Of a stretch of 64,000 nt of DNA, positions 15,206 to 45,972 are shown in pieces. The stretch spans positions 50,038 through 114,037 of IMG/VR virus record IMGVR_UViG_3300046467_002136, one strand, 5' to 3'. Numbering within the stretch: position 1 is the first letter of the stretch; every line of letters starts with the position of its first letter. The notes under the pieces were generated by a model. The model did no database searches. It saw only the letters and a program-made list of their open reading frames with translations, and was not told the DNA's origin. The translations under genes and the position numbers were made by a program. This DNA is from a virus.

Positions 15206-18200
15206 ATGCCAAATGAACTGCTTGATGACATTCAATTTAAAGCCCGAAACGGTGCTCAGATCAGCGTTGACAGTGCCCAGGGGATTGTCGAATGTTTTGT
15301 TTCTGGCATAGGCAACAAAGACAGCGTTGGCGACATCGTTCTCCCTGGCGCCTTCAATGAAAGTCTAAAAAGAAGAAAGCCCAGAGTGGTCTGGGGACAT
15401 AGTTGGAACGACCCCATCGGGAAGGTTCTGGAAATCTATGAGGTCTCCAATGCGGACCCTCGACTTCCGCCGAAAATGAAGACTGCCGGAATCGGCGGTC
15501 TCTTCGCAAAAGTCCAGTTCAATTTGGCCGCAGAAAAGGGACGGGAAGCATTCGCTAACGTCGCCTTCTTTGGAGAAGAACAGGAATGGTCAATCGGTTA
15601 TAAGACCCTTCAAGCCACTTTTGACCCAGTTAAACAGGCCAATTTGCTCAAAGAGGTCGAACTTTATGAAGTAAGCCCTGTACTACATGGTGCCAACCAG
15701 CTAACAGGCACGATTTCTGTCAAGGACGGAGAATACGGTGCCTGCGGAACTGACGGTTGTGAATGTGGCACAAAAAGTCACATTGCTTCAGAACCAGATA
15801 TTCAGGTCGAAGCAGAGGAAGCTTTCATTTTCGAAAAGGGTCAGATGATGGGGCGAGTCCCCATGCAGATGATTATCATTCCAATGCCCAAGAAACCAGA
15901 TAGCGACCCCCACGACGCCGATAGCGACATTTGGGCTCGCGGTGAGGCTGGTCCTATTGACATGGAAGCCCGCATGGGGCTAGCACGAGAAATTCACGGG
16001 CGAACGAAGGTACCGATCAAAATCATTGAGGCCACCGAGAACATGGTGGTGTTCCTCAGAAAGATGGTGGATGGCACTACTCGTATGTACCGGATGCCGT
16101 ACCACAAGACGGATTCTGGACAATACACGTTTGGGAAACCGGCACGGGTCAAGCCCCAAACGGTTTATACACCGGTTCAACCGAACATGCCGCCCGTCGG
16201 CCCAATGAGTCATAAACCGAATCATTATGTCAGTCCGATTCAAGGAAAAGAAACTATAGAAGAAGCTAAATCTGATTATCTGATTTCCTGTACGTTGGAC
16301 AACATTTTTGAATTCAAAGATACGCTTCAACCAATTTTCGATTATTACGAAGTGACAGTGACCCCTAGCGTTAGTGGGTTGTTATGTAGTGATTATCCGT
16401 CTGGATTCGAGGACGCAGCAGATACGGCTATCAAAGCTCTAGGTGGAAGACTCGGGCGAGGTGGTGGCCTGGGAAAAGGCCGTAGGGCTGGGAGAGCCCT
16501 CGCCGCAACGTTCGACCCAAAAGCTTGGGATGGTGATGGTGACGGAATAGTTCAAGAAGGTACGCCTTTTCAGCGTCCTTCTATTCCCGGCATTAACACA
16601 AATTGGCCCGGCGATCCCAAAACCAGAGTAAAACCCGACGATTATCCTGACGACAGTGCCCAAGTTAGAGATGCACGGAAGCCTCGTCGTGACCCGAATC
16701 GCATGCGTCCGGGCAAAGGACCTGCTCGTCGTCGTGGCGTAATCGATGCAAGGTGGGCGGCAGGTCTGCGCTCGATTAGTCCAAGTAAGGCTGTCAATGC
16801 TTCTCTAGATAAGACCTATCAGGAGTTGGTAGATGAGGGGCTTTTCAAGTACCCAACCAAGCCGCATGTGGCTGGTAAACCCATTGCGGTAGCACATGGT
16901 GCACCGGACCTCGCCAAGTTGGAAGAAATTGTAGAGAAGGGCTGGAGACGGGAAGGGGGGTACGAGCAAAGACGTATTTATTTCTTTCCCGAAGGACATG
17001 AAAGCTATATGGATTGGGAAGGCGATTACGCATGGGCTCCAGAGGACCCTGTCGTTGATGCAGGAGTCACGGCACAGGTAACTCCCAAAAAGCCGATCAC
17101 TATTTTCCACGAAGATACGCATGGCTCCGTCAACGCGCAGATTGCAAAGCAGTTGGGTATCTCTGAATCAGAACTCAAGTCCACCCTGATGGAACAATCC
17201 GAGCTGGTGCCGGGAACGTCAGAGGTCGCAGATACTGCGAGGGCAGCGAAGCCAGCGTGGCCCGACGACCATCGGTCGCCACTCAGCTTACACAGGGCGT
17301 TTGGTGTCGACCTATTTGCAGATTACACAGACAACAAAAACGACGGAGGTAATGGCCATACCTTGCGCGGCAATATGGGTTCAGAAATAATCGTTATGGA
17401 TAAAGACATCATCGAAGTCGTCGGTGTGCGGCAAACCGGCTGGAACGAAGACCAGATGGTATTCCACGGTGGTCGACGCTTATACCGGAGTCGCAACTGG
17501 GAACAGGGTCGGGATCGTGAGGTTCTTGATGAAGACAAGTTCCAAGAATGGAGATCGCGCACGAATGAACTCGCTTCTTCCGGTATGCGTTCACGTTCAG
17601 GGGGGAGTTCTGGAGATTGGGAAGACTTAAAATCACAACTTCCATCGCAAGCTATTAGAAATATGTCTGTTAAGGAACGTAAAGGCCGACTTGCGGATCT
17701 GGATAAGAAAATTGATGTTTTAGAACATGACATGGACGAGATGGGATCGCTCGACCCTGAATATAACGAAATGAAACAACGTTTATCGCAGTTGGATTCA
17801 GAACGAACAAAGCATCTGATTTCTGCGGCAATTGATAATTGGGAAGGTGGACAAAAAAGTTTTGTTCGATTGCCCGTCGACTCTAAGGGTGTTGAACTTG
17901 AGTTAACACAAGATGAGATCGATTCACTTCGTTCCCATATAAAAGCACTGATTGGTAAAAGCAAAAACAACAAAGTAAATGGCATTTTAGCAAAATATGA
18001 TCAAAGACTTGTTGGTAATAAAGATGGTGTAGTAAAAATCCCTAAAGAGCAATTTAGCGACCTTATTAAAGCGTGGGACCAGATTTCTCCGCCTGCCCAA
18101 AGTCGGATGCATCCCAAAACGGGTCGTGACATACTCGAATTTGCTGCACTTTCACCAACCCAAAAATTTAGGTCGTCGCAACTCGATCTGCCAGACAATA

Positions 18201-20437
18201 AATATAGAGGATTCGGGGATAAGAGAATCAACAATGGTGCTCATCCTGACATAACTCCAGCCAATCAGGCAAAAATGATGGAAGCTATAGGTGCTCCAGA
18301 GGGTGAACGTCGGGGTCTTTATTTGCCCGGTCATGACTATTTGATGTTCGCAGACTTAAAAGAACACGGCTCTGGTTCACCCCGACGGTGGGCAATCATG
18401 GAAGGCCAGTTCATACACGACACCCAACAGGGGCGTTCGCGAGCAGATCTGCCCCAACTCCCCGGTGAGCCGCTTGTCGAAACGTTAAGGGGTGCCCGTA
18501 GGGCCAATATGGGTGGACCCAATATGGGTAGAGGTGGCCGCACGAGAAGACAATCTCGCAGTGGTCCCCAGTCGCTTCGTGCCATGCCGGGGGACGTGGA
18601 TGCCCTATTTGACGAACCTGGTGTCCCGGACGTAAGTCCTGATATCGATGTAACGCCAGAAAATAAACCAGTAGATACCGCTGCACTTCGTCGTCTAACC
18701 GATCGCAGATATGGACCGCCGTTGACAGCAGCGCAAGCGAGGGAACGTCGAGTTGAAAGACTCGCAAGGCGTTCAGATTCGGTTAATCGACGACGGTCAA
18801 ATGATCTTTTGTCCCGATGGGATGAAGCAGCCAGTGGCACCAGTCGCGACCCTATGCGTCGTGGCTTGAGGTCGGAGCAAAAAATCCCACAAAGGGCAAC
18901 TGCCGACCAAGCTAAACCAGAGACTCGTGGTCGCCCAATGGGACATGTCGTAGAAGATTCTCAAAAACGCTTTAAGGGTAAGAAGTTTGAAGAAATCAAA
19001 CCCAGCGATTGGGACGATTTGAGCACTGAAGATAAATTCGCTCTTCTCAGTGCGGAATTGACTCCGAAGAAGAGCGGGATAAGACAAATCGACTATGACC
19101 GTATCTACAATGAATTAGACAAGATTATAGAAAAAAGGGAGCTTCGTAGAGGCCGCTCAGAGGGTCGCTTTGAAACAATGGCGGAACGACGCGCCCGAAG
19201 AGGTGGAGTCGTATTGTCACCCAATGTTCGCAAGCGTGAATCCGAAGATAGAGAGCCCAAACGAACAACGGCACAAGCAGCCAAAACGGAACGCAAAAAG
19301 GTTCTTAATCACCTGGAGTCGTCGTTCGCCAATGCCGATAGTAGAGCAACCGGCGGCGGGGACGCAGTTAGAAGTGAACACGCAGACATTTGGTCCGAAG
19401 CTTTAGACATAGTTTCAGAGTCGGATGATTTAACCCATTCCCAATTGCGTGCTCTTGATGGATTGTTTGACAGTTATCTCAGTAGAGAGTCTGGCGACTT
19501 GTCACCGGTTGAAGGCGAACTGCGCGCTGCCGCACTAAGTCGTAAGAGCCACATTGAAGATCTTCTTTCTGACTATGAGAGTGATCGATTTATTTCTGAA
19601 GGAAATACCCCTGAAGTTCGAACCTTGGGTGGGGGTGGCGACGATCTCGACATTATGGAAGTCAACAACCTTGAACTGTTTTCTTCAGGCGGCATGCGAT
19701 CTATCCGACAAAACAGGAGCAAGCTGCCGGGTACATCAACGCAAGAGTATGTAGATGCCAGACGACGACAAGGTTTGCGTTCGCAAGCTCATACATCCAG
19801 AGAAGAAAAGATCGGAGATCTTCGCAACCTTTGGAGTAACGCGCGAGCAACTGGTGACAAAGAAGAAATGGATCGTCTGGAACGCCAATTGCGAGAGCTT
19901 GGAGCTAAACCCAGTAGGGGCAATCCTCGACCACAGTATTCAGCTCCATCACGCAGACTCAACCAAAATAATGAAACCAGTACGGGCAACCGAGGCATGC
20001 GATCAGAGCGCGAAGGCCGTGCTCAGATTGCGGGCGAAGCCACATGGTTTAAAAAAATTGAAGATTCTCTTCAAAAAGAAATCGATATGGCTTCACGAGA
20101 TAAAGATAAACAAACAGCTGACGCCCTCCGAACCCTAAAACAAACATTGGCTCGCCAGGAGTCGGGTAAAACCGGCGACAAGCGCACCAACGCTGGCACA
20201 TTGACTGTCACTCAGGCAGAGATTGACACAATGCTCGATGCTCTAATGCATGTTTTGGATCGTCAAACTGCTGAAAAGGGGTCCCGAACAGCGATGTTTG
20301 CCGAATTAATTGAAAAGCTTTCTTCCGCAGCTATTTCAACTTTTATATTGAGAGAAACAGAAGAAATTCAGAGTAGAACGCGAAGAGCGACCAACGAAGC
20401 AGGTCGTGGAGTCAACATCCCAAATACGGATTTATGA
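15206..20437 (+). CDS. HK97-type prohead protease fused to about 1550 aa polyprotein cargo
   Basis: Residues 1-175 contain DSVGDIVLPGAF, WGH...PIG, WSIGY and LYEVSPVLHGAN. These are followed by the DGDGDG motif, six G[ML]RS sites and an ART-like module. Confidence 0.9.
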   Translation: MPNELLDDIQFKARNGAQISVDSAQGIVECFVSGIGNKDSVGDIVLPGAFNESLKRRKPRVVWGHSWNDPIGKVLEIYEVSNADPRLPPKMKTAGIGGLFAKVQFNLAAEKGREAFANVAFFGEEQEWSIGYKTLQATFDPVKQANLLKEVELYEVSPVLHGANQLTGTISVKDGEYGACGTDGCECGTKSHIASEPDIQVEAEEAFIFEKGQMMGRVPMQMIIIPMPKKPDSDPHDADSDIWARGEAGPIDMEARMGLAREIHGRTKVPIKIIEATENMVVFLRKMVDGTTRMYRMPYHKTDSGQYTFGKPARVKPQTVYTPVQPNMPPVGPMSHKPNHYVSPIQGKETIEEAKSDYLISCTLDNIFEFKDTLQPIFDYYEVTVTPSVSGLLCSDYPSGFEDAADTAIKALGGRLGRGGGLGKGRRAGRALAATFDPKAWDGDGDGIVQEGTPFQRPSIPGINTNWPGDPKTRVKPDDYPDDSAQVRDARKPRRDPNRMRPGKGPARRRGVIDARWAAGLRSISPSKAVNASLDKTYQELVDEGLFKYPTKPHVAGKPIAVAHGAPDLAKLEEIVEKGWRREGGYEQRRIYFFPEGHESYMDWEGDYAWAPEDPVVDAGVTAQVTPKKPITIFHEDTHGSVNAQIAKQLGISESELKSTLMEQSELVPGTSEVADTARAAKPAWPDDHRSPLSLHRAFGVDLFADYTDNKNDGGNGHTLRGNMGSEIIVMDKDIIEVVGVRQTGWNEDQMVFHGGRRLYRSRNWEQGRDREVLDEDKFQEWRSRTNELASSGMRSRSGGSSGDWEDLKSQLPSQAIRNMSVKERKGRLADLDKKIDVLEHDMDEMGSLDPEYNEMKQRLSQLDSERTKHLISAAIDNWEGGQKSFVRLPVDSKGVELELTQDEIDSLRSHIKALIGKSKNNKVNGILAKYDQRLVGNKDGVVKIPKEQFSDLIKAWDQISPPAQSRMHPKTGRDILEFAALSPTQKFRSSQLDLPDNKYRGFGDKRINNGAHPDITPANQAKMMEAIGAPEGERRGLYLPGHDYLMFADLKEHGSGSPRRWAIMEGQFIHDTQQGRSRADLPQLPGEPLVETLRGARRANMGGPNMGRGGRTRRQSRSGPQSLRAMPGDVDALFDEPGVPDVSPDIDVTPENKPVDTAALRRLTDRRYGPPLTAAQARERRVERLARRSDSVNRRRSNDLLSRWDEAASGTSRDPMRRGLRSEQKIPQRATADQAKPETRGRPMGHVVEDSQKRFKGKKFEEIKPSDWDDLSTEDKFALLSAELTPKKSGIRQIDYDRIYNELDKIIEKRELRRGRSEGRFETMAERRARRGGVVLSPNVRKRESEDREPKRTTAQAAKTERKKVLNHLESSFANADSRATGGGDAVRSEHADIWSEALDIVSESDDLTHSQLRALDGLFDSYLSRESGDLSPVEGELRAAALSRKSHIEDLLSDYESDRFISEGNTPEVRTLGGGGDDLDIMEVNNLELFSSGGMRSIRQNRSKLPGTSTQEYVDARRRQGLRSQAHTSREEKIGDLRNLWSNARATGDKEEMDRLERQLRELGAKPSRGNPRPQYSAPSRRLNQNNETSTGNRGMRSEREGRAQIAGEATWFKKIEDSLQKEIDMASRDKDKQTADALRTLKQTLARQESGKTGDKRTNAGTLTVTQAEIDTMLDALMHVLDRQTAEKGSRTAMFAELIEKLSSAAISTFILRETEEIQSRTRRATNEAGRGVNIPNTDL

Positions 20438-20482
20438 TGACGCTGTCTAGTAATACTAATAAGATGCAACAGGTAGGATACA

Positions 20483-22285
20483 ATGTCTAATAGCGGTCTC
20501 AGAGGCAAACAATCGAAGTACCAATGCATGTTGAGCGGCGAAAAGGTCGCGAAACCGTGTGTTGGCTGCGTCAACCCTAAGGGGTGTCTGTCCAGAGCCA
20601 TGCAGTACAAGGAGCCTAAACAAATGGGTCTGGAAGAAGAAAACGTAGTCAAGCTGAATGCCGATGGTTCGGTTCTTAAGTGTGCTAAGGACTACAGTAC
20701 AAGTGATTGCGAGTATACTGCAGGTAGTAAGATATGTGGTAAATGCGGCGCATCAGCGATTGAACTGAAAGAGAGTCCAATGGAACAAGCCATCGCTAAC
20801 GATGAAACTCTGGACGACGAGGACGCAGTGCTGATTAAGGCACTTGAAGAAAAAGCCAGCGTCATGGACGAGGTGTCCGAAGTCGAAGCCGAAAAACGTC
20901 GTATTGAAAAAGACACTCGCGATACCTCCGATACACAATTGGAGGACGACGACGACGATCCGGATCACGATGACCACGAAGTCACAGAAGCCAAATCTGA
21001 AGATGATGTGGAAGAAAAGGTCGAAGACGAACCAATCGACGAAAAGACTGAAGACGATGGTTGGATCGGCCTAGAGGAAGAAGAGAAGGACGAAAAGGCT
21101 GGCGTTATGATGCGCGAAAGCCGTCTCAACGTCGATGATGAGGAAGAAGAGGAAGAAGAAGAGGAAGAGGCTCCTGTTGCTGCTGCTCCTCCTCCTGCTC
21201 CTCCCGCTGCTCCTGCTCCCCCTCCTGCTGCCGCTGCGCCACCCGCTGCGCCGCCTCCAGCAGAAGAAGCCCCTCCGGCTCCTATTGCCGAAGAGGAAGA
21301 GGCTCCCCCGGCCCCAGCCCCAGCCCCAGCTCTTGCTGAGGAAGAGGAAGAGGAAGAGGAAGAGGAAGAGTACGACGAATCCTCAGCCAAGAAATCCATG
21401 GGTGCATATTTGTGTGCCCTTGACCGAAAGGTCTACCCCGGCAACGCCTCTGTTTGCGACGACTGCCCAGGCGGTTGCGTCTCTGAAAAGGGCATGCCCA
21501 GCTTGCTCGAAGTCGAACAAGCTCTTGAAATTCAATTCAAGGGCGACGAATATGCAACGGTAATTGATTCCGTGTATTCCGATCGCGCAGATCTTTTTAT
21601 CTGCGATCTTGATGTCGATGGCAAAAAGGTCATCGAAGTATTCGTTGAAGCTAAGTCCGGAGAGGTTCTCGGATTCAGCCGTCTTGACGATTCTGTCTTT
21701 GAACAAAAAGATGCTTTCGAGACAATTGACCTTGTTGACTTCAGCGAGGCTGCCGAAATCGCAGTTAAGACAGTCGAAGGCGTAGTCAACGCTGTGGAGC
21801 CAGACGTGTTTGAATCTTTCGACTGCTACGCGGTAGAAATTAATGGCGTAGACGGCAAGTCCCATGATGTGTTCGTTGCTCTTGACGGTGAAGTCTTGGG
21901 TTATGACACATACGAACCAGATGAGGCAGAGGCCATCGAGGCCGAAGCTGCTGAAATCGCCCTTAAACGTGCGTTCTCAGACGATGAACGCGAAGGTTTG
22001 GCCGAAGAAGGCCACGCCATGAAGGATGGTTCGTATCCAATTGTGTCGGAAGAAGATCTCCGCAATGCGGTTCAGGCTTATGGTCGGGCAAGTAACAAAT
22101 CAGCAACAAAAGCTCATATTATGAAACGAGCTAAAGATCTTGGTCTGGAAGAACTCATTCCAACCAACTGGGTTTCTGGTAGTAACGAAAAAGCGATCAT
22201 GAGTGCAGACGATGCCGAATTCATGGTTTCTCTGATCGAATTTGAATTACTCGCGGAGGAAACCAATAACAACGGTCCCATTTAG
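20483..22285 (+). CDS. Acidic scaffold-like head protein with Cys clusters, PepSY-like repeats and a DGSYPI domain
   Basis: Poly-E and Pro-Ala low-complexity region. The PepSY-like part reads VDFSEAAEIAVKTVEG...YAVEI...DVFVALDGEVLG. The C-terminal part reads EREGLAEEGHAMKDGSYPI...AHIMKRAKDLG...IPTNW. Confidence 0.65.
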   Translation: MSNSGLRGKQSKYQCMLSGEKVAKPCVGCVNPKGCLSRAMQYKEPKQMGLEEENVVKLNADGSVLKCAKDYSTSDCEYTAGSKICGKCGASAIELKESPMEQAIANDETLDDEDAVLIKALEEKASVMDEVSEVEAEKRRIEKDTRDTSDTQLEDDDDDPDHDDHEVTEAKSEDDVEEKVEDEPIDEKTEDDGWIGLEEEEKDEKAGVMMRESRLNVDDEEEEEEEEEEAPVAAAPPPAPPAAPAPPPAAAAPPAAPPPAEEAPPAPIAEEEEAPPAPAPAPALAEEEEEEEEEEEYDESSAKKSMGAYLCALDRKVYPGNASVCDDCPGGCVSEKGMPSLLEVEQALEIQFKGDEYATVIDSVYSDRADLFICDLDVDGKKVIEVFVEAKSGEVLGFSRLDDSVFEQKDAFETIDLVDFSEAAEIAVKTVEGVVNAVEPDVFESFDCYAVEINGVDGKSHDVFVALDGEVLGYDTYEPDEAEAIEAEAAEIALKRAFSDDEREGLAEEGHAMKDGSYPIVSEEDLRNAVQAYGRASNKSATKAHIMKRAKDLGLEELIPTNWVSGSNEKAIMSADDAEFMVSLIEFELLAEETNNNGPI

Positions 22286-22309
22286 GGACTCCCCGAAAGG
22301 TGGGTCCGA

Positions 22310-25300
22310 ATGACCGAGTTCTCTCCAAAAAAAAGAACCTACCTCTCAGCAAGAATCCGTCGTAGACGACGAGATTTAGAAGCTGCTGGGCTGGACTTTC
22401 TTGAACGTAGAAACGTTCTTGCTGCACAGCCAACCCTTAACGCTCAAATTGTAGTTAAGGCGCTTGATGGCAGTATCGGAGATTCTCCTGAAAAGGAAAA
22501 AGATAAGTCCAAGAAGCGCACAGCTGGTTCAGGGGTTAAAGAGATAGAGCCCGAGGTTCGTTACGACCCTAAAGGTGTTCGTGATCCTGGACAAGTTTTC
22601 AAACTGCATGTCACTGCTCGTGACCTCAAAACAGGTGAAGACAATTTCGGGTGGATTGATCCGCCCGAGGCAGTGCCGAAAGAAAAACAGCGCTCCAGTA
22701 TGGCTGACGCTATGCAGTGGCGGGCAACTCGGCCTCAGATTCGGATACGGACTTACGATCAGGACCCAAGAACGGGTCAACCAATCGTTGAGACTGAGGA
22801 AGAAATTCAGGTCAAAGGTCTCGGTAGAACCCTCAAAGACACCCTTCCGGGCCAAAGTCTTGGGGGGCGTGCGGCCAGCGGCCTTGGTCTCATTGTTGAC
22901 GCTTTAGGAAAATTCCGTTGCCCACCCGGCACTCCGGCGGCCAATCAGTTCACCGACGAGTTCGGGACAAACTGTTTCTCGCCTGTAGAGATATTACGCG
23001 ACACAGTCCGGGGTCTTGTCAATAGTCTCAGATCCAGCAGAGGCCGAAGCTGGTCATTACCCGGTCGAGGCGATAGCGAAGCGGAACAGCTGAGGTCCAA
23101 TATCGCAGAGCGGCGCGCAGCCGCCGGTAAAGCCGGACAGCTTATTGGTAATACTGCGTCGATTGAAGCAGCCTTGATTGAACGCAACACCGTTATTCAA
23201 TCTTTAATGGATCAGTACGGCATTTCAGCTGGAGACGAACTAAACGAGGATATGTGGTCATTGTTGGAAGCAATGACCGATGTAGATACCGGTGATTTCC
23301 CCGACCTGGAATGGAAAGGATTGTTCACCAGCATGTTCGGAGATGAACTCTGGGATGAAAATCTTACGATGCGTCAAAATTTGGAAAAGATGCGTGCGGC
23401 AGTTCGCGAAGACGTATTCAGTTTCATGGGTGCACAAACCAAAACGGGTGCACAAGCAATCCGGGATTCGTATAACCATAGAGACCCCAAAGCGATGGCA
23501 ATGGTTGACGGTCTTGTTGGTCGACACGAATCAGCGATGCGAGGATTCTTAGGTTCGACTCTTCACGAGTTCGGAGACGATCCGAGAGCCATGAGCGGTC
23601 TCAAAAAGATTTCTTTCCGAGCCTACAACCCAGATATTGACGACTTCCAAAGCTATTGGGGTACCGAAGGGGAATGTATTCCCCTCTGGGAAGGTACCGG
23701 CACCGGGATGGCCACCAAACTCCAATTCAACGCTACTGCCATTGCCCTGCGACCGTTTCAAGAGGGTGGACTGACTCATGAGGGTCCGGACGGTCGACCA
23801 AAACTCGTACAGGTTGATGCTGGAGGCGCCTTTTCGGCATCAGTAACAGACGCCGAGAAATGGGCGGCAATCGCAGACTTTCTTGCACATACTGAAAAAA
23901 TGGAATACTGGCATAAACAATATGCAAATGACCTTACTGCCTCTGCTCACGGTGGAAGCCTCGAAGCCTTTTCCATGCATGTCGGATATCACGAACTTGC
24001 ACACGTTAAACAGTATCAACAGATCGCACAACGAGTATTAGAAACCTATGAGCGTGATGGTCAATTCTCGATTTACAAAAGAGACGGCACTGGACTCGAA
24101 TTATTAACTGCGAATCCTTCTGAATGGACAAACGAACAGTTCGCTATGGCCGTTGCCTCCACATTCCAAGATGCGCTTCCACCCGGCACCACTACCGACT
24201 TTCCCCCGATGGACATGGTCCAATTTGAGGGAAGCATGCTGCATCTTCTCGCAGGACAATATTACCAAGACCTGGTTCAAGGTTTCCTGCAAGCAACCTC
24301 TGGTGGTTATGCAGAAGATATTACTCCGGGTCAATATGTGAGTCCTTTGGACGCCAGAGGACTACCTGTTCACAATTCGGCGAAAGCCCACCTCAACCTG
24401 TTGTTTCTAGAGGGAACAGCTGAACTAGCGGCTCTTAAACGAACCGGAGGCATCGCAGGCGACGAACTCAATGAAGTTCTTGATTGGATGGACGCAGACA
24501 TAGCAGACGTTGTCTACGGGATTCCAGAGGTTGACGTTCCGTTTAAACCCGGTTCCATTGTTTCCGACACTGACATGGGTGAAGCGCCTTGGGACACTCC
24601 TCTCGAACCGGGCGAAGTTATGACGCCATCAGGCATCATTATTCCGACTAGTGCTGTGAAAAAGATAGAAGCAGCAGCGGCGAGGAAGAGGCAAGAACGC
24701 CAACTAACTACGGAGAAGCGAAAGCTCGAAACTGCTAGACGATTGCGGCATCGAACAGAAATACACAGTTGGGGCAGCGGCGGGGACGGTGAAATCAAAA
24801 CTGCGTCTGATGGAACAAAATATGTTTGGATCGGAGCATTAAGTGGTGAGGGCGAATGGCAGGTGCTATTTGATGACCTGTTTGAACCAGCATTTCTGGA
24901 GGAGCTAGAAGGTGTCACCCCACCCGAAGTGGACTATGACCTTCCACCCGGCATGCGCTCTGGCGGTATGCGCTCTAGGCGAGAATTGGGCCAATTCGAC
25001 AACGGACCCAGAGTCGGAAAGTTTTCCGGAGAAACACACGAAGAACCAGACGGCTCAGTCTGGGAGTTTCGCCCTACTCTTCGGGATCGTCCAGAAAAAG
25101 GTGGTTTCTGGCGTGATATGACAGACCCTGCAAACCGACGAGAAATAGCCGAACGCGCCACACGCAGACGCCAATTGGAAGCTCAAGAGGGTCGAAGCAT
25201 GGGACGACTTGCTCGCCCGGGGGCTGGAAGCGAATGGGAAAACATTGTCCGGAGGGGCGATGGCGGGATGCGTTCCACAAGGGCCACTGTGGGACAAAGT

Positions 25301-32806: not shown

Positions 32807-32832
32807 ACGTAAACTATTATGGGTGACTACAC

Positions 32833-35417: not shown

Positions 35418-38400
35418 TGAGACAGTTCGCTATTATCAAAGACGTTAGTTCAGACAAACTTTTTGCAATTATTGTCAAAGGTGATGATTTTACTGTCTGC
35501 CACGGGGTTCATCCTGTTGGCAAACAGTGGGCTGACAGTTACAACAAGGGTTTAACCAAATCCATTTATGACGACCTTCAGCCGGGAATTTCGGTTGGGT
35601 CGTTCGCTCCGGTAACCACAACAACGCAAGCTTTGATTGATGAGGCAATCGAAGGGAAACCCGTTCGTTTTCCTGATCACTCACAGCTTACATATGTCAA
35701 GTCAGTTAACTACAGATATGACGGAGAAATCCCCCAAGTAAAAGATGCAGGGCTATCAAATCTGACAGATAAAGATTTCTTTGTTGGGGCAGACTATAAG
35801 GGAGTAGCTTTTCGTGCCGATGCTGCAAGACTTTCACTTTTGGCCAAAGCTCGTTTAGGGCATTTTGGAACTGATTCTAAAGGTTTCAATTTTACTGAAA
35901 AGGGAACAGATCAGAAAGCTCTAAACGAAGAATTGTTTCAAACTGCTCGGGGGTCCGGCAATGTCCGTCGTGCAGCTAAAGCAGTGCTTTTAGAAAAGCA
36001 TTTAAACTTAGAGGAACATCCGGGGTATCTCGGAACAAGAGAACATTCGTCACCTATCCGTACAAAAGCCAATCGTCTTGGTCGAAGAATTGGCCGAGGA
36101 GGAGGCAGAGGTAGGGGTGGCGGAGGTATTCGCAAAATTGGACGATCGATGCAAGACCCGTTCGATCCAAAGGCTTGGGATGGAGATCATGACGGGATAG
36201 TTCAGGAGGGCACCATATGGGAACGCCCTTCAATACCGGGAGTTAACACGAATCTTCCGGGCCAACGTCGCACCCGAACAAAGCCTCGCAACTACCCAGC
36301 CGATGACGCAGACGGTGTCGAATTCAGATTGCGTAATCGTCGTGAAGAAAACCGTGCCCAAAATGAAATTCTAAGTACTCCGGTTGGAGAGGTTATTGAA
36401 GAATTCCCCGAAGCAACCGAAGCTCTCAGAAACACACTTTCAGGATTCCCTGAAGGCGATGACATCTGGGAAACTCCACTAAGAGACATCACAGATAATG
36501 GAGAATACTTCGGTGAGGATGATTTAGATCGACTTCTTGATGCTGCTGTACCACGGCGTCGAGAAGGTGCCACTGACAGCTTCTATCGCGATGAACAAGG
36601 CATGCGCTCCCAAAGAGACGCACCTCCACCTCCTCCGGTTCCCGAGCGTGAAAGTGAGCGTGATTTTGGCGACCCGCCTCCTCCCCCGCCTGTACCCGAA
36701 CGACGCGATTTACCTGAACCGCCAGAGCCTGGACCCCGAGCATCCGCTCCCGCTCCAGAGCCTCCAGAGCGGAAGCCACAATTAGTTCTACCTCACGCGG
36801 GTACGAGCCATGGGCAGATGACCCCTGAACAGCGACGAGAGCAACTCGACGCTATGGAATACGAAATCCCTGCCGCCAGAGCGAAGTCACGCCAAATGCG
36901 AGAAATCGCTCAAGAACGTAATCAAGATCTGAATTTCTTTAGGGGACGAGGCGCAGACGGGAAACGCCGAAACCGGCATCGTCCTGGCAGTGAGGCAGCA
37001 GCAGAGCGTGGTGAAAAGCCCTCAGGTATGAACGAGAACGCTTGGCATCGCAATGAAACAGAATGGCTTCAAAGACAGATCGACAGTGCCAACGAAGGCG
37101 TGTACTTTTGGGACCAAACAGATTACCAATGGTCCTTACAGCAGCAGAGTCTGCGAGAGTTTAATGCCCGTGGTGAAATGGCAGCCCCCCGGGGTATGCG
37201 TTCTGAACGATATGACATCACACAAGATGAAGCTGGCAAATGGCGTGTGATGGATACGGGCAACAGAAACATGCGGCTTCCCGAAGAATATGACAACCGC
37301 GAGGACGCTTTAAGAGAAGCGATACGAAGAGATAACCCCCGTGGTGGCATGCGATCTACGCGACCGCTTACGCCCGAGGAACGTGCTGACCACGAAGAAC
37401 GATTCGGCCCGGGAACACGAGATGGTACGCGACCGCTTACGCCCGAGGAACGTGCTGACCACGAAGAACGATTCGGCCCGGGAACACGAGATGGTACGCG
37501 ACCGCTTACGCCCGAGGAACGTGCTGACCACGAAGAACGATTCGGCATGCGTTCCTCAATTGAAGTTGGATCTGGACGCCCTAGTGGAGAACGGATCGCC
37601 AGGGCGCGGGAAGAAGTCGCCTTGTCAGCTGGACCCCAGCGGACCAGTGATGGCCGTCTGTATGACGAACGAACTCACGGAGAACTAGTAGATGCCTTCA
37701 CAGGTGCAGGATTGTCTATCTCTGAAGCAGAAGCAGAAGCAGATCGGAGAATGCAACATCGATTTGGTGACAGGTGGCTGCAACACCCCTTAAACCGTGA
37801 TCGCATATCTGGTCGAGGCGGCATGCGCTCGGAAAGCGGAGGCGAATCTCAACAAGATCGAATCGATCGCCGAGAACGAGGCGAGTTCGACGAAATGACC
37901 CGAGTCGGGCGAGCCGCCAGAGAAACTCATGAAGAGCCAGACGGTTCAGTTTATGAATTCCGTCCTACTCTTCACGACAAACCTGAACGGGGTGGCAATT
38001 GGATTGACATTACAGACCCCGGCCAAAGATCTGAAATGGCTAGGCGTGCTACGCAAAGGCGTCAACACGAAGCCCAAACGGGCACGAGCATGGGGCGGTT
38101 AGCGCGACCGGGTGCTGGCAGTGAATGGGATCGAACTACGAGAGGTGGAATGCGCTCTAGGACGCGTGATGCTTCAGTAGATCGTGCCTCTCAATTGCAA
38201 GGCATGCGCTCAGGCGGCAGACGACGCCGAGGCCAAGCTCAACCTGGACTTGATCGTCACTCAGACATTGACGGTCAGATTTGGGAAACTCTTACCGACG
38301 CTGAAAGAGCACATGTCGGAACGGCGATTGATACAGAAATGCGTAGACGCATGCACGGACTCGCATGGAACGACATGGACGGCATAGATCCTCGCAAGCC

Positions 38401-40147
38401 AAAACAAAAAAAGCGTTCAGAGATGACCCCCGAAGAAGAAATGGAAGCAACCTTCCACGTCAACCCCCTCGGAGGGATCGTAAAACAGTATTTCGATCAA
38501 GAAATCAGGCCAGGCTTTAAAAAAGACTATGACGGTGACGAACTTGCCCAAAAACTTAGGGACTATGTTTTCACCGACACCGACATCGACACCATCGAAG
38601 CCGCGATAGAAAGTCAAATCGAAGCGACTGGTGACGCAACTGACAAAGCTGCCGACCAGCTGAAAGATCAGTTAAGGGAAATTCGGATCTACCGAAACAT
38701 GGTCGAACAAAGCAATAACGGCAAAGACTCTGACGCCTTCCAATTCCTTGAGCATCTTACGCCAACACAGCGCGCCCGAATCTATAACCGTGCAAACGGT
38801 GCTGACAAGGATCGTCTGAAAACAAGTAAAGCTTCTTGGGGTCTCAGTAAGGGCAATCGCATCAATTCAACTATCGGCAGCACGTTCACTGAACGCCAGA
38901 CCGCCATTGACTCCGTTAAGCCCGGTGTGAGGCGTCGTGCAGGAGAGTTCTCCCGGTCGATGGCACAACGCATTTGGGCTCCAAACCCGAACAGTGCTTA
39001 TCGTCGTGCGCTTAGAAAGGCTCGACGCGGAGGGGCAGGAAGTTCTCTTCCCGGTTTCCGTCGTGAAGAGGATAAAAGATCAATAGTTGCCCGCCGTGTC
39101 GCTCAACTGCGACGCAAGTTGCGGGTCGTTAAGGGTCGTAAAGGTATTCAAGGCGCAATCAATGCTTCTGAAAAGAAACAAATCAAGAAAGCAGTCGATT
39201 TCGACGCAGACGGCAAGTTGGTTACAAGCGACGAAGGTATCGCACGTCTCGGCAAAGCCTCCAGAGCACTACTCGGCGACAAGTCGCTCCTGAAAGATGT
39301 CAGGATGAAGGGTCGTGGCGGTAAGGGCACGGACGGAGCTAGCGAAGATGAGGTCGAGAAGATACTCAATCAGAACCCAGAAATGGCTGTCATTTGGGAC
39401 GCTATGGGCATGAATGATTTGCCGGTTGTTGTAGACGATGACAACTTCGAAGCCCTGATTGATGCTGGCCATCCCGTTATAGGTCGAGGACACGGAAGCG
39501 CTAGCAATGCGACCGATTATCTTGATGACGAATTACGTTTCCTCCCCGGAGGAGGCGGTGAAGCATCAGGCAAGGGTGAGTATTGGTCAACCGGCCAAGG
39601 CAGTTGGGGTAGTTGGCAAACTACAGAAGGAGGCAACACAGCTGCTGTTCTTACACCCAATGTTCGTCGCATGGACGGAGACACTTTAGACGCCGAATCT
39701 ACCGCTAATAGATCCGTTAGTCAGGCATTCGAGCTTGTGCGAGCAACCTATCCCGGAGATGAATTAGAAAAAGCAGACATTGCCGAAGTCGTCTCCAAGA
39801 TGGATGCTGAAATAGCAAAAATAACAGATCTTGCCGAAGGTGCCCCTATTTGGGAAACCGAAGTTGGTCAACTCTGGACACACTTGTTGGATTCGATCCG
39901 CACCAGCGGCAACCCCGACTCTTTGAATGCCATGTTGCTGCTTAACAAAATTAATAACACCAGAGGCGGCAGAAACCTTATTGCCCCCATCTTGGGTTAT
40001 GACACAATCCAGTCGGGTAGCGTAGAGTTGGTGATGAACCGCAGTGCCGTCATCACCCTAGGCAGAACCCTTGGTTCTTCAGGATTGAGTCAATTCTTTA
40101 AGCAAGCATCAGATGTACGCAGCGAAGGCAGAAGGGCTAGAGCATGA
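35417..40147 (+). CDS. Giant GMRS-segmented polyprotein with C-terminal ADP-ribosyltransferase-like domain
   Basis: 1576 aa with the DGDHDG motif and seven GMRS sites. The C-terminus reads IGRGHG...GKGEYWS...LGYDTI...ELVMNRSAV. Confidence 0.75.
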   Translation: MRQFAIIKDVSSDKLFAIIVKGDDFTVCHGVHPVGKQWADSYNKGLTKSIYDDLQPGISVGSFAPVTTTTQALIDEAIEGKPVRFPDHSQLTYVKSVNYRYDGEIPQVKDAGLSNLTDKDFFVGADYKGVAFRADAARLSLLAKARLGHFGTDSKGFNFTEKGTDQKALNEELFQTARGSGNVRRAAKAVLLEKHLNLEEHPGYLGTREHSSPIRTKANRLGRRIGRGGGRGRGGGGIRKIGRSMQDPFDPKAWDGDHDGIVQEGTIWERPSIPGVNTNLPGQRRTRTKPRNYPADDADGVEFRLRNRREENRAQNEILSTPVGEVIEEFPEATEALRNTLSGFPEGDDIWETPLRDITDNGEYFGEDDLDRLLDAAVPRRREGATDSFYRDEQGMRSQRDAPPPPPVPERESERDFGDPPPPPPVPERRDLPEPPEPGPRASAPAPEPPERKPQLVLPHAGTSHGQMTPEQRREQLDAMEYEIPAARAKSRQMREIAQERNQDLNFFRGRGADGKRRNRHRPGSEAAAERGEKPSGMNENAWHRNETEWLQRQIDSANEGVYFWDQTDYQWSLQQQSLREFNARGEMAAPRGMRSERYDITQDEAGKWRVMDTGNRNMRLPEEYDNREDALREAIRRDNPRGGMRSTRPLTPEERADHEERFGPGTRDGTRPLTPEERADHEERFGPGTRDGTRPLTPEERADHEERFGMRSSIEVGSGRPSGERIARAREEVALSAGPQRTSDGRLYDERTHGELVDAFTGAGLSISEAEAEADRRMQHRFGDRWLQHPLNRDRISGRGGMRSESGGESQQDRIDRRERGEFDEMTRVGRAARETHEEPDGSVYEFRPTLHDKPERGGNWIDITDPGQRSEMARRATQRRQHEAQTGTSMGRLARPGAGSEWDRTTRGGMRSRTRDASVDRASQLQGMRSGGRRRRGQAQPGLDRHSDIDGQIWETLTDAERAHVGTAIDTEMRRRMHGLAWNDMDGIDPRKPKQKKRSEMTPEEEMEATFHVNPLGGIVKQYFDQEIRPGFKKDYDGDELAQKLRDYVFTDTDIDTIEAAIESQIEATGDATDKAADQLKDQLREIRIYRNMVEQSNNGKDSDAFQFLEHLTPTQRARIYNRANGADKDRLKTSKASWGLSKGNRINSTIGSTFTERQTAIDSVKPGVRRRAGEFSRSMAQRIWAPNPNSAYRRALRKARRGGAGSSLPGFRREEDKRSIVARRVAQLRRKLRVVKGRKGIQGAINASEKKQIKKAVDFDADGKLVTSDEGIARLGKASRALLGDKSLLKDVRMKGRGGKGTDGASEDEVEKILNQNPEMAVIWDAMGMNDLPVVVDDDNFEALIDAGHPVIGRGHGSASNATDYLDDELRFLPGGGGEASGKGEYWSTGQGSWGSWQTTEGGNTAAVLTPNVRRMDGDTLDAESTANRSVSQAFELVRATYPGDELEKADIAEVVSKMDAEIAKITDLAEGAPIWETEVGQLWTHLLDSIRTSGNPDSLNAMLLLNKINNTRGGRNLIAPILGYDTIQSGSVELVMNRSAVITLGRTLGSSGLSQFFKQASDVRSEGRRARA
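37358..37546 (+). repeat. Perfect 69-bp in-frame tandem repeat (about 2.7 copies)
   Basis: Identical units start at 37358, 37427 and 37496, encoding TRPLTPEERADHEERFGPGTRDG. Confidence 0.95.
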
Positions 40148-40458
40148 TTACTCCAGAAAATCATAAGGAATATCACATAATGCTCTCAACGCTTCTGCGG
40201 TACCCCCCGTTCTCCACTGAAGACGACGAAAACGGCGACGAATTGGATTACATCGCTGGTAAAGAACTAATGGCCTACCACGACGAGGTTATCGCGCCAG
40301 CATCCAAAGGCGGAAACCTAGATTGGGAATTAGAGGGTGAACCCTTCGAAGAGTTCAGAGAAAAATGGAAAGACGAACTTGAAGAGGCTGAACTTTACCA
40401 ATCCAGACATGGTGACGATTTCGCTGCCGCCGCAAAAGCTGCCAGCGGCGATGAATAA
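40144..40458 (+). CDS. Small acidic protein (candidate immunity protein)
   Basis: 104 aa, very D/E-rich, with an ATGA overlap to the ART-like gene. Confidence 0.65.
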   Translation: MITPENHKEYHIMLSTLLRYPPFSTEDDENGDELDYIAGKELMAYHDEVIAPASKGGNLDWELEGEPFEEFREKWKDELEEAELYQSRHGDDFAAAAKAASGDE

Positions 40459-40460
40459 CG

Positions 40461-43205
40461 ATGCCCGAGGCGCGCACGGACTCCGAAACTGCCAAGAAAG
40501 CACAGGCTCTAAGAGAGGCTGCTGAACTCGGCTGTACTGGTGCGCACCGTCATCCCGATGGAACATGGATGGCGTGCAGCACAATGCAAGAATATGAGCG
40601 TCTCACCAATGGCGAAAAAGAAAAAAGCTCTTTAGATCTCATTGAGGAAACCCAGAAGATCCGTTCCCAAAAGGGTCGCAAGCGCAAGAAGAAAACTAAG
40701 CGCCAATGGGACAAGTTAAGGGAGCGAGGTGTCACTGGAATTGACACTCTGTCTGGTGGTGGACTCGTATCCGGTAAGGGTATGACTTTTCGACCCGTAG
40801 ACGGTGACACAGACGTTTTCGACAACATCAACCAAGCGCGTCGTAGAGCACGCCAATTGGGATGTATCGGTGTATCTAGACGTACTTCCCGTAGTGGACG
40901 TAGGGTTTGGACCCCGTGCACCAACATGACGGACTATGCGCGCGCCACTGGTAGTACGGCTCTTGGAAGGCGCTACCAGCAAAGACTGGAACGTCAACGA
41001 ATACGAAATATTGTTCGTGAAGAGCTATCTAAAATGAAACGACGTAAAAAGCGTTTATTTGAAGAAGTGTACGAAGCCAAAGGTATCGGTCGCCGTATCG
41101 GACGTGCTGCACGGTTTGACCCGAAGGCTTGGGATGGCGATCATGACATGATTGTCCAAGAGGGCACCCCATTTGAACGTCCTGCCATTCCTGGAATTAA
41201 TACCAATCTTCCGGGGAGAAAAAAAAGAGGTATGCGCTCTGTTTGGGATGGGAAACCCGGCACAGTTCAACGCCCAGAACCTAAAGCAAAACCAAAACCC
41301 GTAACCGACGAAGTCAGAATGGCGTCTCTCGGTAAGGAAATTGACAAGTTGCGGATAGGGAAACTTAACCCTCTGCTTCAAGAACTCAAAAAAGCCCAAA
41401 AAGAAGGCGACCACGCGGGAGTTCTTCGCATCAGAAACTTGATGGCGCCACTTCAACAAGAAGAATCACGTCTTCGTGAAGAACTCGGCACCGCCATGGG
41501 TAAAAGCAGATCGGATCTATCGTTAGGAGCTTCTGCAAATGGTGGCGTGCGTTCCCGCCGTCAAATCGATCATATGCTTCAGACTCCGCAGCAAAATATT
41601 GCCGATATGGAAGCTGACATAGATGAGTATTTCGCCTTTTTGGATGAACATAGTCGAATTGATTTTCAGAGACATTCCATCTATCGACCTGGCGATAAAC
41701 GTATTCGGAAAATAGGAGAACCGTCAACAGACCAATATTCGAGTGGAGAAGAGTATGGAGCTTTACCTGAGATAGACCAAGACATTATCGAAGAGCATGA
41801 CGATCTTTGGGGAAAGGTCGAGTGGTGGGCGAACTTTATTGAACAGTCAAGGATTGAACGCAACGACTTGACAACCGAACTTAGAGAAAAAGAAGACGCG
41901 TTAGATAGCGCAACGGAAAGCGCTCATAGGCCATATCACGCAGATACTAGAGATTTCTTAAAAGCCATCGACGGTGACGAAGATAGAGACACCTTTATTG
42001 AGCGCACATACGGCCCCTTCGAAACCAACCAGAGAGATCTGGAATACGGTGGCAGTAGTGAACCTGAGTGGCGTGAAGATCAATGGGGAAGGGATACCTT
42101 CAACCAGTACACCGACTACTGGGATGATTTGATTCGGATACGAGAAGAAACTTCATATATACAATATGAAATAAACTCGATTCAGGATCAGATTGATAAA
42201 TACCATGGGAACGGTACTGAATTCGCCAGAGACGATTATCGTAAAGCTCTAGAAGCCAAGCTGTCTAAAAAGACCAGCTCAGAAGTGATCAAGGGTGAGC
42301 TCGCTGAAGGGCGAATTGCTCTTGATCCTACTCAGGGTTTGCGTTCGCGTAGAGATCGTTTAAGCCCTAGTGAAAAAGAGTGGCTTAAGATGCTTCAAGA
42401 TAATCCTGGTCTTTGGGCTGAAGCCCCAGCAAGCGTGCGAGCGATTGCTTCAGACAAGATGAAACGTGAAGCACTCCAAATACGCAACGATTTTTCAGGT
42501 GGGATGCGAAGCGGACGCTTTGGTAGCGGCGGAAAAGCAATGGGCCAGCGAATACTTGCCAAGGTCAAGCCAGAACACAGAAACAAGGAAGATAGAACCC
42601 TTTACTTCATTGGCGGCACAACGGGTTCCGGTAAATCCACTTTAGTAAAAAATGGCTCCTTCGGCGTTCCGAACGATACTGAAGCTGCCCACATAGATCC
42701 GGATTTCATCAAAACGGGCTTAGAGGGCTGGGACCCCAAAAACGCCACCGCGTTTCACGGAGCATCCGTTACAGCAACTCGCGGCGTTCTAGATAGTGCT
42801 GCCAACGCCAAGATGGACGTTGTTGTACAAGGCACAGGGAAACGAGCCGAACACCTCCATACTGCCAGATCGCGCGGCTATTCGACTGTTGGGCATTTTG
42901 TTTATGTCCCCGGCAACGAGGCGAATAAAAGAATTGCTCAACGAACAGCGGCTGGTGGGCCTGACATCCCAACCGGTTTTGGTACCCAAATCGCTGGAGA
43001 ACTAAAAGGCCATGTAAGCAGACAAATAACACAAGGCTTATATGACGAGTTCTTCTTATGGGACAATACGGGAGATACACCAAGATTGATAGCATTCAGA
43101 AATAGGGATGGGCATTTCGAAATCAATAGCAGAACTGAGTTCGATGCTTTCTTTAGTGAGACCGGCGCAAAGTATGTAGAAAGGTATTGGAAAGATAACC
43201 AATGA
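40461..43205 (+). CDS. GMRS-segmented polyprotein with C-terminal zeta-toxin-like P-loop kinase
   Basis: Two LGCxG...WxxC repeats (DUF3721-like) and the DGDHD motif. The kinase part reads GGTTGSGKST...HIDPDFIK...DVVVQGTG...RIAQR...GGPDIP...WDNT. Confidence 0.85.
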   Translation: MPEARTDSETAKKAQALREAAELGCTGAHRHPDGTWMACSTMQEYERLTNGEKEKSSLDLIEETQKIRSQKGRKRKKKTKRQWDKLRERGVTGIDTLSGGGLVSGKGMTFRPVDGDTDVFDNINQARRRARQLGCIGVSRRTSRSGRRVWTPCTNMTDYARATGSTALGRRYQQRLERQRIRNIVREELSKMKRRKKRLFEEVYEAKGIGRRIGRAARFDPKAWDGDHDMIVQEGTPFERPAIPGINTNLPGRKKRGMRSVWDGKPGTVQRPEPKAKPKPVTDEVRMASLGKEIDKLRIGKLNPLLQELKKAQKEGDHAGVLRIRNLMAPLQQEESRLREELGTAMGKSRSDLSLGASANGGVRSRRQIDHMLQTPQQNIADMEADIDEYFAFLDEHSRIDFQRHSIYRPGDKRIRKIGEPSTDQYSSGEEYGALPEIDQDIIEEHDDLWGKVEWWANFIEQSRIERNDLTTELREKEDALDSATESAHRPYHADTRDFLKAIDGDEDRDTFIERTYGPFETNQRDLEYGGSSEPEWREDQWGRDTFNQYTDYWDDLIRIREETSYIQYEINSIQDQIDKYHGNGTEFARDDYRKALEAKLSKKTSSEVIKGELAEGRIALDPTQGLRSRRDRLSPSEKEWLKMLQDNPGLWAEAPASVRAIASDKMKREALQIRNDFSGGMRSGRFGSGGKAMGQRILAKVKPEHRNKEDRTLYFIGGTTGSGKSTLVKNGSFGVPNDTEAAHIDPDFIKTGLEGWDPKNATAFHGASVTATRGVLDSAANAKMDVVVQGTGKRAEHLHTARSRGYSTVGHFVYVPGNEANKRIAQRTAAGGPDIPTGFGTQIAGELKGHVSRQITQGLYDEFFLWDNTGDTPRLIAFRNRDGHFEINSRTEFDAFFSETGAKYVERYWKDNQ

Positions 43206-44763: not shown

Positions 44764-44823
44764 TCTGACTTAGGAAGATGCTCTGCTTAGCAAATAGCTA
44801 GGTGGCACAGAGAAAAGCACAAT

Positions 44824-44866: not shown

Positions 44867-44896
44867 ATTGGGGTTTACAAGTAGTAATATCTAGTC

Positions 44897-45067: not shown

Positions 45068-45078
45068 GAGAAGTATTC

Positions 45079-45971: not shown

Positions 45972-45972
45972 C

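Follow-up and report, generated by a model that had tools for sequence, protein, structure and literature searches.

Four giant proteins encoded in the head locus of a phage, denoted here A to D, are divided into modules by 24 in-frame copies of a short peptide, G[MLV]RS, hereafter the separator. The proteins are encoded within the 64,000-nucleotide stretch that we analysed, positions 50,038 to 114,037 of the IMG/VR record IMGVR_UViG_3300046467_002136 (hereafter the window), which make up the right-hand end of one viral contig of 114,037 bp (49.5% G+C; CheckV completeness estimate for the contig, 76%). Comparison with relatives and structural modelling provide good support for the view that the separators are short, polar, flexible linkers joining autonomous, swappable modules, and the distribution of the peptide suggests that these sites are probably cut by some phage-encoded protease.

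The separators are distributed over A (six copies), B (seven), C (seven) and D (four), all of them in frame and at the positions given in the original prediction, which was made from this DNA without database searches; 19 of the 24 are GMRS, the most frequent tetrapeptide of the four proteins. The amino acid composition of A, B, C and D would yield 0.14, 0.16, 0.14 and 0.06 copies of G[MLV]RS, respectively, about 0.5 in total, and about 0.09 copies of GMRS in the four proteins, so that the composition-matched count suggested along with the prediction revealed a pronounced enrichment. The claim that the motif is confined to this locus holds as well: G[MLV]RS is absent from all 33 other open reading frames (ORFs) of at least 150 aa in the window, and the rest of the 114,037-bp genome contains a single further in-ORF copy, about the number expected by chance for the remaining proteome. 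The 24 sites are encoded by 20 distinct 12-nucleotide sequences, with four Gly, five Arg and five Ser codons, among them the AGG codon at 18863 and the AGC codon at 42501 to which the prediction had drawn attention. Therefore, as was proposed from the wobble variation, selection acts on the separator peptide and not on a DNA repeat. The same diversity of 12-mers excludes a repeat or recombination site operating at the DNA level. With respect to the proposed number of about 28 products, 24 sites in four proteins indeed delimit 28 segments, but several of these are merely 5, 18 or 27 aa long.

Several lines of evidence place the separators in linkers. Across 864 sites in 120 proteins of the family to which these chains belong, the hydrophobic fraction falls from 0.26 to 0.11–0.14 within 5 residues of the motif and recovers by 10–15 residues, and the flanks are rich in Arg, Gly and Ser, with the consensus R-R-[G/R]-G-Phi-x-S-[S/R]-[R/S/T]-G, where Phi is a hydrophobic residue. 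In an AlphaFold model of D, built with 37 homologues (mean predicted local distance difference test score, pLDDT, 75), ten coils with pLDDT <50, together 19% of the chain, separate confidently folded parts, and four of these coils hold the four separators, an outcome with a chance probability of about 0.001. The model of A residues 1–540 predicts with confidence the protease domain and two small domains, and places site 520 in a disordered stretch. Thus, the suggested AlphaFold check located all D sites and A 520 in low-pLDDT coils, and the originally proposed position of the sites at module borders is borne out by these models, by the dip in hydrophobicity and by the exchange junctions considered below. 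Self-cleavage at the Ser of the motif, which would need a folded context, was rejected given that the sites sit in disordered linkers.

The boundaries of homology coincide with the separators. Compared with its counterpart in a 90%-identical relative (L003), C shows one replaced inter-site block and two cassettes that are missing in the relative, with the junctions at sites 395, 593, 644 and 802. The homology of A with its closest relatives ends at site 520 and restarts at site 793, and one match begins exactly at 1220; that of D breaks or restarts at sites 257 and 362. Because homology breaks and resumes at the sites, the modules between them, judging from these alignments, behave as units of exchange. 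Three paralogous cassettes, B 886–985, B 1529–1617 and C 802–910, which are 58–68% identical, carry GMRS on both sides. The homologues do not lack the motif as such: they retain the joints, with the peptide rewritten. Two compositional features of C may be added. Between two of its separators (window 37355–37543) there are three tandem 23-aa units, RPLTPEERADHEERFGPGTRDGT, the third copy being incomplete; this triple repeat is missing in the 90%-identical relative, where merely scattered residues of one unit align. Residues 402–430 form a proline-rich run that contains PPPPPVPER twice.

Separate folded parts, swappable cassettes and a zeta-like kinase indicate that each polypeptide joins several unrelated modules, as do the polyvalent proteins of phages discussed below. 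By profile and model matches, the identities that can be considered established are only those of the S78 protease, DUF3721 and the zeta-like kinase. The PF04586 match of the protease scores 42.1 bits against a cut-off of 21, which assigns the domain to this family; its catalytic H65 and S129 (in EWSIGY) are invariant in 46 homologues and align with the motifs of HK97 gp4, and Foldseek with the A model retrieved merely weak rows for the herpesvirus proteases of Epstein-Barr virus (EBV) and Kaposi's sarcoma-associated herpesvirus (KSHV; E 0.08). The zeta-like kinase was predicted to follow the last D site, and this placement was upheld by the Pfam match to residues 701–831 and by Foldseek, in which the best match is the zeta toxin 1gvn_B (E 7e-8), followed by 3q8x and 2p5t; the fold resembles those of zeta, PezT and AvrRxo1. 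The DUF3626-like module proposed to follow the last B site fared less clearly. Residues 1994–2129 of B resemble residues 2984–3083 of a 3112-aa protein of a relative (G001; E 7.6e-5), in which a PF12294 match (30.8 bits) at residues 2915–3006 overlaps the region that resembles B, whereas the DUF3626 hidden Markov model (HMM) itself matched nothing in the genome; accordingly, the last B module (1760–2243) can be called DUF3626-like by transitive homology only. The ART-like and ParB-like modules were not recovered: Pfam found neither in the modules, and the HMMs for ART-PolyVal (PF18760), MPTase-PolyVal (PF18818) and DUF3626 (PF12294) had no match in the whole genome (the PolyVal HMMs at E ≤ 1). 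C 929–1576 gave no significant family match, with an ART-PolyVal lead from Atlas (0.85) below the trusted level; Pfam searches of ten inter-site segments at E ≤ 1 produced sub-threshold hints only, such as sigma-70 region 4/LuxR in A 520–792, and phmmer searches of B, C and A 520–1743 against the PDB returned nothing useful. As for the two 'zincins' of the original prediction, HExxH motifs do exist and the one in B is invariant in six genomes, whereas the one in A lies in a module missing from the closest relatives. The modules recognized in relatives include NUDIX, DUF3626, sigma-70 region 4, HTH, KTSC, exonuclease, WYL and pentapeptide.

Besides the separators, A, C, D and F share a tag of about 35 aa, FDPxAWDGDxDGxVQEGTPFERPxIPG (tag HMM, E 1e-10 to 1e-26), the core of which, DxDxDGxxQE, resembles a calcium-binding loop; the tags of A, C and D are 72–76% identical over 50 aa. 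The tag precedes the first separator in A, C and D, and throughout the family loci the first site always lies 30–60 residues past it. In relatives with a separate protease ORF, this ORF ends just before the tag and the following ORF has the tag at residue 45; thus, the tag heads the cargo chain. Specifically, in L083, L086, L087 and L094 the protease ORF ends with ...YGQAGGSKK and a stop codon, and the next ORF, of 1200–3300 aa, carries the tag at residue 45, an arrangement that could represent either a split fusion or an unrecognized frameshift or readthrough. The tag also forms the C-terminus of a 135-aa ORF located far from the head locus (window 1375–1782, minus strand). By analogy with the capsid-targeting sequence of T4 and the tail of the HK97 protease, the tag is a candidate capsid-loading address.

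The separator belongs to a larger set of lineage-specific codes. A search with A identified 313 proteins of about 1000–3000 aa with this protease at the N-terminus. In viral contigs, relatives of the protease part are encoded in at least 525 stretches, and most of the 77 loci that we read are full-length protease-cargo fusions. In most of the 313 fusions, the commonest tetrapeptide is GMRS, GLRS, GLAS, GFAS, GFSS, GLSS or GMAS, all of the general form G-[M/L/F]-x-S, with position 3 differing between lineages (R, A or S; also P, N, Q and M at single sites). Some lineages have other tags, for example PLGSRS, which occurs 17 times in one chain. The motif class (x = R, A or S) is clustered on the tree of the protease domain, with 22 changes compared with 62 in shuffles. 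We further compared the chains encoded in trans in the head loci of five relatives, the capsid proteins of which are about 57–73% identical to that of the present phage (the 57% coming from a contig-truncated match of 172 residues). The relative with the 73% identical capsid protein (G001) has GLAS in A (nine copies), in the homologues of B, C and D, and in the tagged 3112-aa giant (ten copies); G004 has 23 copies of G[MLF]RS in A, 5 in B, 17 in C and 5 in D; G006 employs GFAS and GLAS; and G002, mostly GFSS and GLSS. The same code thus recurs in several chains of one genome and is rewritten between genomes; therefore, as far as can be told from these comparisons, each phage lineage has its own reader of the peptide, which acts on more than one protein. 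The D family, with lengths of 506–1595 aa, displays this organization in the simplest form: a tagged N-terminal DUF3721 carrier is followed by a site, zero to six cassettes each followed by a site, and the zeta-like kinase. Most short forms, of about 535 aa, contain a single site, located between carrier and kinase, and the long ones reach seven sites with cassettes in between; the dialect follows the lineage. In the 90%-identical relative, F carries GLRS directly after the tag, unlike F of this genome.

The gene order in the head module is portal, A, E, B, F, G, H, C, D and major capsid protein, with the genes for A to D located between the portal and major capsid genes (Table 1), that is, among the virion genes, which is where polyvalent proteins are encoded. 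By capsid protein, the nearest cultured phages are Gordonia phages of the Hanem/GMA6 type and Brevibacterium phage Cantare (45–48% identity). Two WhiB-family genes are present in the window (46012–46221 and 63471–63659, both on the plus strand; 66 and 52 bits, both over the cut-off), and WhiB genes are a hallmark of actinobacterial phages. Given these relatives and the two WhiB genes, the host is likely to be actinobacterial. In a tblastn search of 50,697 records of cultured phages, B had no match and the match of A was limited to the protease domain; neither the separator nor the tag was found in the cultured relatives Gordonia phage Hanem and Brevibacterium phage Cantare. The head-locus proteins of Gordonia phage Hanem (L001, 9181–26714) contain the peptide DARTPTAH repeated five to seven times.

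Table 1. Head-locus genes, domains, tag and separator sites in the window (residue numbers follow the protein name).
Feature	Position	Strand	Evidence or remark
Portal protein, start of head locus	13113..15107	+	PF04860, E 1.5e-47
A, 1743-aa candidate polyprotein: protease and two small folded domains first, next the tag, finally six separators with putative cargo modules	15206..20437	+	
HK97-type prohead serine protease domain, A 24-169	15275..15712	+	PF04586, E 1.3e-10; phrog_80, E 1.7e-26; pLDDT 70-88
Tag in A, FDPKAWDGDGDGIVQEGTPF...IPGINTN, about 50 aa before first separator	16511..16615	+	tag HMM, E 2e-25
GLRS, A 520	16763..16774	+	within disordered stretch 503-540 of A model; P0002 and P0003 homology stops here
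GMRS, A 793	17582..17593	+	homology to relatives restarts at 789-812
GLRS, A 1220, Arg codon AGG	18863..18874	+	P0006 match begins exactly at site
GMRS, A 1496	19691..19702	+	
GLRS, A 1523	19772..19783	+	
GMRS, A 1597	19994..20005	+	
E, acidic 600-aa protein, 26% Asp+Glu, scaffold candidate	20483..22285	+	no separator; syntenic in 6/6 genomes
B, 2243-aa protein: untagged, conserved N-terminal domain of 800 aa, followed by seven separators with putative cargo modules	22310..29041	+	
Invariant HELAH, B 561-565, candidate zincin active site	23990..24004	+	six-genome alignment
GMRS, B 881	24950..24961	+	
GMRS, B 886, in tandem with B 881	24965..24976	+	
GMRS, B 986	25265..25276	+	closes cassette 886-985
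GMRS, B 1529	26894..26905	+	opens cassette 1529-1617
GMRS, B 1618	27161..27172	+	
GMRS, B 1673	27326..27337	+	
GMRS, B 1760, before last B module 1760-2243	27587..27598	+	
F, 1117-aa protein, tag at residues 158-190 (29512-29610)	29041..32394	+	no separator in this genome
C, 1576-aa candidate polyprotein, tag at 36161-36265, seven separators	35417..40147	+	
GMRS, C 395	36599..36610	+	block replacement relative to L003 starts 4 aa downstream
GMRS, C 593	37193..37204	+	end of block replacement relative to L003
GMRS, C 644	37346..37357	+	L003 deletion starts just past site
GMRS, C 710	37544..37555	+	entire cassette missing in L003
GMRS, C 802	37820..37831	+	L003 deletion ends; opens cassette 802-910
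GMRS, C 911	38147..38158	+	
GMRS, C 929, before last C module 929-1576	38201..38212	+	
D, 914-aa candidate polyprotein: DUF3721 carrier (40497-40589), tag (41115-41219), four separators, zeta-like kinase	40461..43205	+	
GMRS, D 257	41229..41240	+	in coil 234-280, pLDDT<50
GVRS, D 362	41544..41555	+	in coil 349-363, pLDDT<50; homology to relatives restarts
GLRS, D 626	42336..42347	+	in coil 623-630, pLDDT<50
GMRS, D 681, Ser codon AGC	42501..42512	+	in coil 679-687, pLDDT<50; site before kinase throughout D family
Zeta-toxin-like kinase module, D 701-831, Walker A at 719	42561..42953	+	PF06414, E 4.4e-10, 39.8 bits (cut-off 22.3)
Major capsid protein, HK97 fold, end of head locus	43429..44763	+	PF05065, E 4.9e-46; no separator

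In the scheme that we infer, with respect to cleavage, the bond cut, the enzyme, encapsidation, ejection and timing alike, A to D would be cargo polyproteins of an actinophage head module, strings of autonomous modules, and the tetrapeptide would be the recognition site of a phage-encoded protease that cuts these chains into separate proteins. The likeliest enzyme would be the HK97/assemblin-type serine protease formed by the first 170 residues of A, which might cut between the Arg and the Ser of the motif, as at HK97 FNK↓S and herpesvirus assemblin A↓S. Whole chains would be loaded into the procapsid, A travelling with its own protease, and C, D and F with the same tag as A; after cutting, the modules would exit with the DNA, and new modules could be inserted between two sites with nothing else changed. 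Given the single N-terminal tag, cutting would have to wait for loading, which fits an assembly-activated prohead protease.

Whether the fused S78 protease is the enzyme that reads the separators appears to be a nearly balanced question, leaning slightly to the doubtful side, and this protease is slightly favoured over the HExxH domain of B. This protease occupies the front of chain A as a fusion in cis, and in HK97 gp5 the sequence FNK is followed by SLGS at the known maturation site. The sites of assemblin, YLQA-T and VQA-S, are similar in kind, and assemblin is made fused to the scaffold and releases itself (PMC4498786). A preference for Ser at P1' has been described for gp245 of phage SPN3US (PMC10052503). 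On the tree, two separate contrasts show R and L at protease positions 85 and 92, respectively, in the absence of R-type sites, compared with P/S and K in their presence; more generally, positions 52, 85, 92 and 124 differ between the R-type and A/S-type lineages, differences with which ancestry is confounded.

A number of observations weigh against cleavage of the separators by the S78 protease within the capsid. The phage is uncultured and known here from its sequence alone. Both the clustering of the motif class on the protease tree and the co-variation of protease residues are confounded by shared ancestry, and relatedness alone could account for the clustering. B has sites and no tag, the tag HMM giving no match in this protein. 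Capsid and scaffold proteins are the canonical substrates of prohead proteases, and no G-Phi-x-S is present in the major capsid protein of five genomes or in the scaffold-like E of six genomes. The N-terminal region of the capsid protein is conserved regardless of the code, and neither a separator nor a version co-varying with the code was found there, so that any site of delta-domain removal in this protein would appear not to be of the separator type. The conserved region comprises the first ~150 residues in five genomes (in the window, 43429–43900) and includes an invariant K-D before x-Y-[TS]-[AS]-[LM]-P. Furthermore, the protease domain is closed by an invariant ISVK (window 15713–15724; T169, S171 and K173 invariant in 46 homologues), which aligns with AAMK↓SVDG of HK97 gp4; this motif may point to a Lys-directed specificity, which would leave the GLAS lineages unexplained, or may be the protease's own release site, a second code. 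The freedom of position 3 of the separator would suit P2' better than P1.

A further difficulty for a protease confined to the capsid comes from the tail. In G001, a tail-lysin/tape-measure-like protein, which such an enzyme would not be expected to encounter, has a variable joint with GGLAS and YGLAS in tandem; the protein contains 3 sites, compared with 0.1 expected. Its homologue in the present phage is encoded upstream of the window (44695–48465 of the contig, minus strand) and has QGMKS at residue 582, where the homology with G001 breaks and the tandem GGLAS/YGLAS stand. The code may also mark a tail protein and, if these sites are real, it may label the proteins destined to exit the virion, with cutting perhaps taking place after ejection. 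The corresponding broader reading, which we consider quite possible albeit still somewhat doubtful, is that uncultured, aquatic actinophages forming a large clade possess a rewritable four-residue cleavage code, G-Phi-x-S, private to each lineage through the choice of x and co-evolving with a phage protease, that marks every protein leaving the virion. These proteins would comprise the cargo chains of the head and, in part of the lineages, the tape-measure protein or the lysin of the tail; insertion between two sites would make any gene product an injected effector, and processing could be confined to the time after ejection.

The constant elements of the motif are G, the hydrophobic residue and S, whereas position 3 drifts, and this pattern would also suit a different reader, the HExxH (zincin-like) N-terminal domain of B or another metallopeptidase, cutting between Gly and Met, Leu or Phe. 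Such an enzyme would have the hydrophobic residue at P1', as thermolysin-type enzymes prefer, and might act outside the capsid or after ejection, in agreement with the site-free capsid protein and scaffold-like E and with the tandem sites in the tail-lysin-like protein of G001. The first ~800 residues of B are syntenic in six of six genomes, with H561, E562, H565, Q568, E701 and E705 as well as the motif GKFRCPPGTP invariant, and autoprocessing by a zincin has been proposed for polyvalent proteins (Iyer et al., 2017; PMC5512222). The B N-terminal domain of the six genomes also contains the invariant GKFRCPPGTPAANQFTD followed by CF (window 22907–22957), which belongs to no known family; the GKFRCPPGTPAANQFTD motif may be a metal site accompanying HExxH. 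Nevertheless, we regard a metallopeptidase reader as rather unlikely. No relative in Pfam, the PDB or Atlas gives B a peptidase fold, the profile of its N-terminus producing only chance-level matches against the PDB, and the MPTase-PolyVal HMM does not match. Being untagged, B would leave its co-packaging with the tagged chains unexplained, and cutting by a cytoplasmic enzyme would sever the modules from the single N-terminal tag ahead of loading. In addition, the B profile misses the equivalent large proteins of Gordonia and Brevibacterium phages, which have HExxH near the C-terminus in phages that are separator-free.

The location of the sites in flexible Arg/Gly-rich linkers is also compatible with a tetrapeptide that remains uncut and serves as a conserved hinge, for docking or as the target of a modification, perhaps by a packaged kinase, in chains that could thread through the tail whole, as beads on a string. 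The virion RNA polymerase of phage N4, which is packaged unprocessed (PMC5512222), provides a precedent, and a zeta-like kinase is indeed part of the cargo. This explanation appears improbable because a hinge needs no exact identity of four residues, kept within each genome and rewritten between lineages in every chain together. Moreover, tandem sites 5–27 aa apart are typical of cleavage sites, the autonomous exchange of modules and the shortest forms of D, with one site between carrier and enzyme, correspond to a propeptide layout, and chains of 1500–3900 aa would need to be ejected intact.

A host protease reading the motif, with codes that differ because the hosts differ, would have a parallel in staphylococcal phage 80-alpha, in which the host protease Prp processes the capsid and scaffold proteins at a site resembling FF↓AS. 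GFAS and GLAS are loosely similar to that site, and the tail-protein sites of G001 would be within reach of a cytoplasmic host enzyme; we nonetheless find this scenario very hard to credit, considering that the codes differ among phages with capsid proteins 70–73% identical to that of the present phage, that cutting in the producing cell would precede loading, and that only phage cargo chains have the motif, for which no host template is apparent. Finally, chance, a low-complexity artefact of the Arg/Gly-rich linkers or the residue of a DNA repeat can be ruled out by the 24 sites observed where about 0.5 are expected, by the 20 distinct 12-mers and by the recurrence of the motif in positionally equivalent linkers of hundreds of homologues.

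If the separators are cut, one short peptide would turn four genes into about two dozen virion-delivered proteins, and the gain and loss of effectors as cassettes would be explained because the exchange junctions coincide with the sites. Injected anti-host proteins of uncultured phages could then be recognized by a simple sequence rule, and the tag together with the separator could serve to load foreign proteins into capsids. The rewriting of position 3 among R, A and S provides natural specificity swaps from which the substrate choice of an HK97/assemblin-type protease, or of a new zincin, could be studied.

Our literature search found no paper describing the separator code, and the known systems resemble the one described here only in part. 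The closest counterparts are the polyvalent proteins (Iyer, Burroughs, Anand, de Souza and Aravind, 2017; PMC5512222), likewise giant multi-module proteins encoded beside virion genes, for which joint transfer with the DNA and processing by a peptidase of their own chain have been proposed; the zeta-like and putative DUF3626-like cargo fits their repertoire. By contrast, that study describes no separator peptide, the word 'linker' being absent from its text, and reports the assemblin-like peptidase as rare and only C-terminal (PMC5512222), whereas here it is N-terminal and found in hundreds of contigs. The polyvalent signature domains ART-PolyVal and MPTase-PolyVal were not matched in this genome.

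In phages T4, phiKZ, 201phi2-1 and SPN3US, a propeptide at the N-terminus targets head proteins, a brief motif recurring in many of these proteins is cut by the prohead protease and the mature parts are ejected (PMC10052503, PMC5694885). The tag, which precedes the first site in A, C and D but is missing from B, might play a comparable targeting part. Unlike the separator G-Phi-x-S, which lacks Glu, the motif in the T4/phiKZ-type systems has the form L/I-x-E or A-x-E, and an S77-type enzyme cleaves it after the Glu. Substrates there include the capsid protein and the portal, whereas here the capsid protein is site-free, and a single propeptide is removed per protein, with no many-module chains, cassette exchange at the sites or lineage-private rewriting.

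The herpesvirus pUL26 and the HK97 gp4-gp5 pair share with A the protease fold family (PF04586), as echoed by the weak Foldseek matches to the EBV and KSHV proteases, and in pUL26 the protease similarly occupies the N-terminus of a longer chain and releases itself at x-A↓S/T (PMC4498786). The passenger of pUL26 is a scaffold with two sites, in contrast to the up to about 24 sites, the unrelated enzyme modules and the motif-free capsid protein found here. RNA-virus polyproteins and pp220 and pp62 of African swine fever virus (cut at GG↓X) are the familiar cases in which a protease encoded by the virus divides one translation product at repeats of a short motif. These polyproteins consist of essential replicative or core proteins in a fixed order, whereas the chains described here would string together variable accessory cargo that differs even between chains that are about 90% identical.

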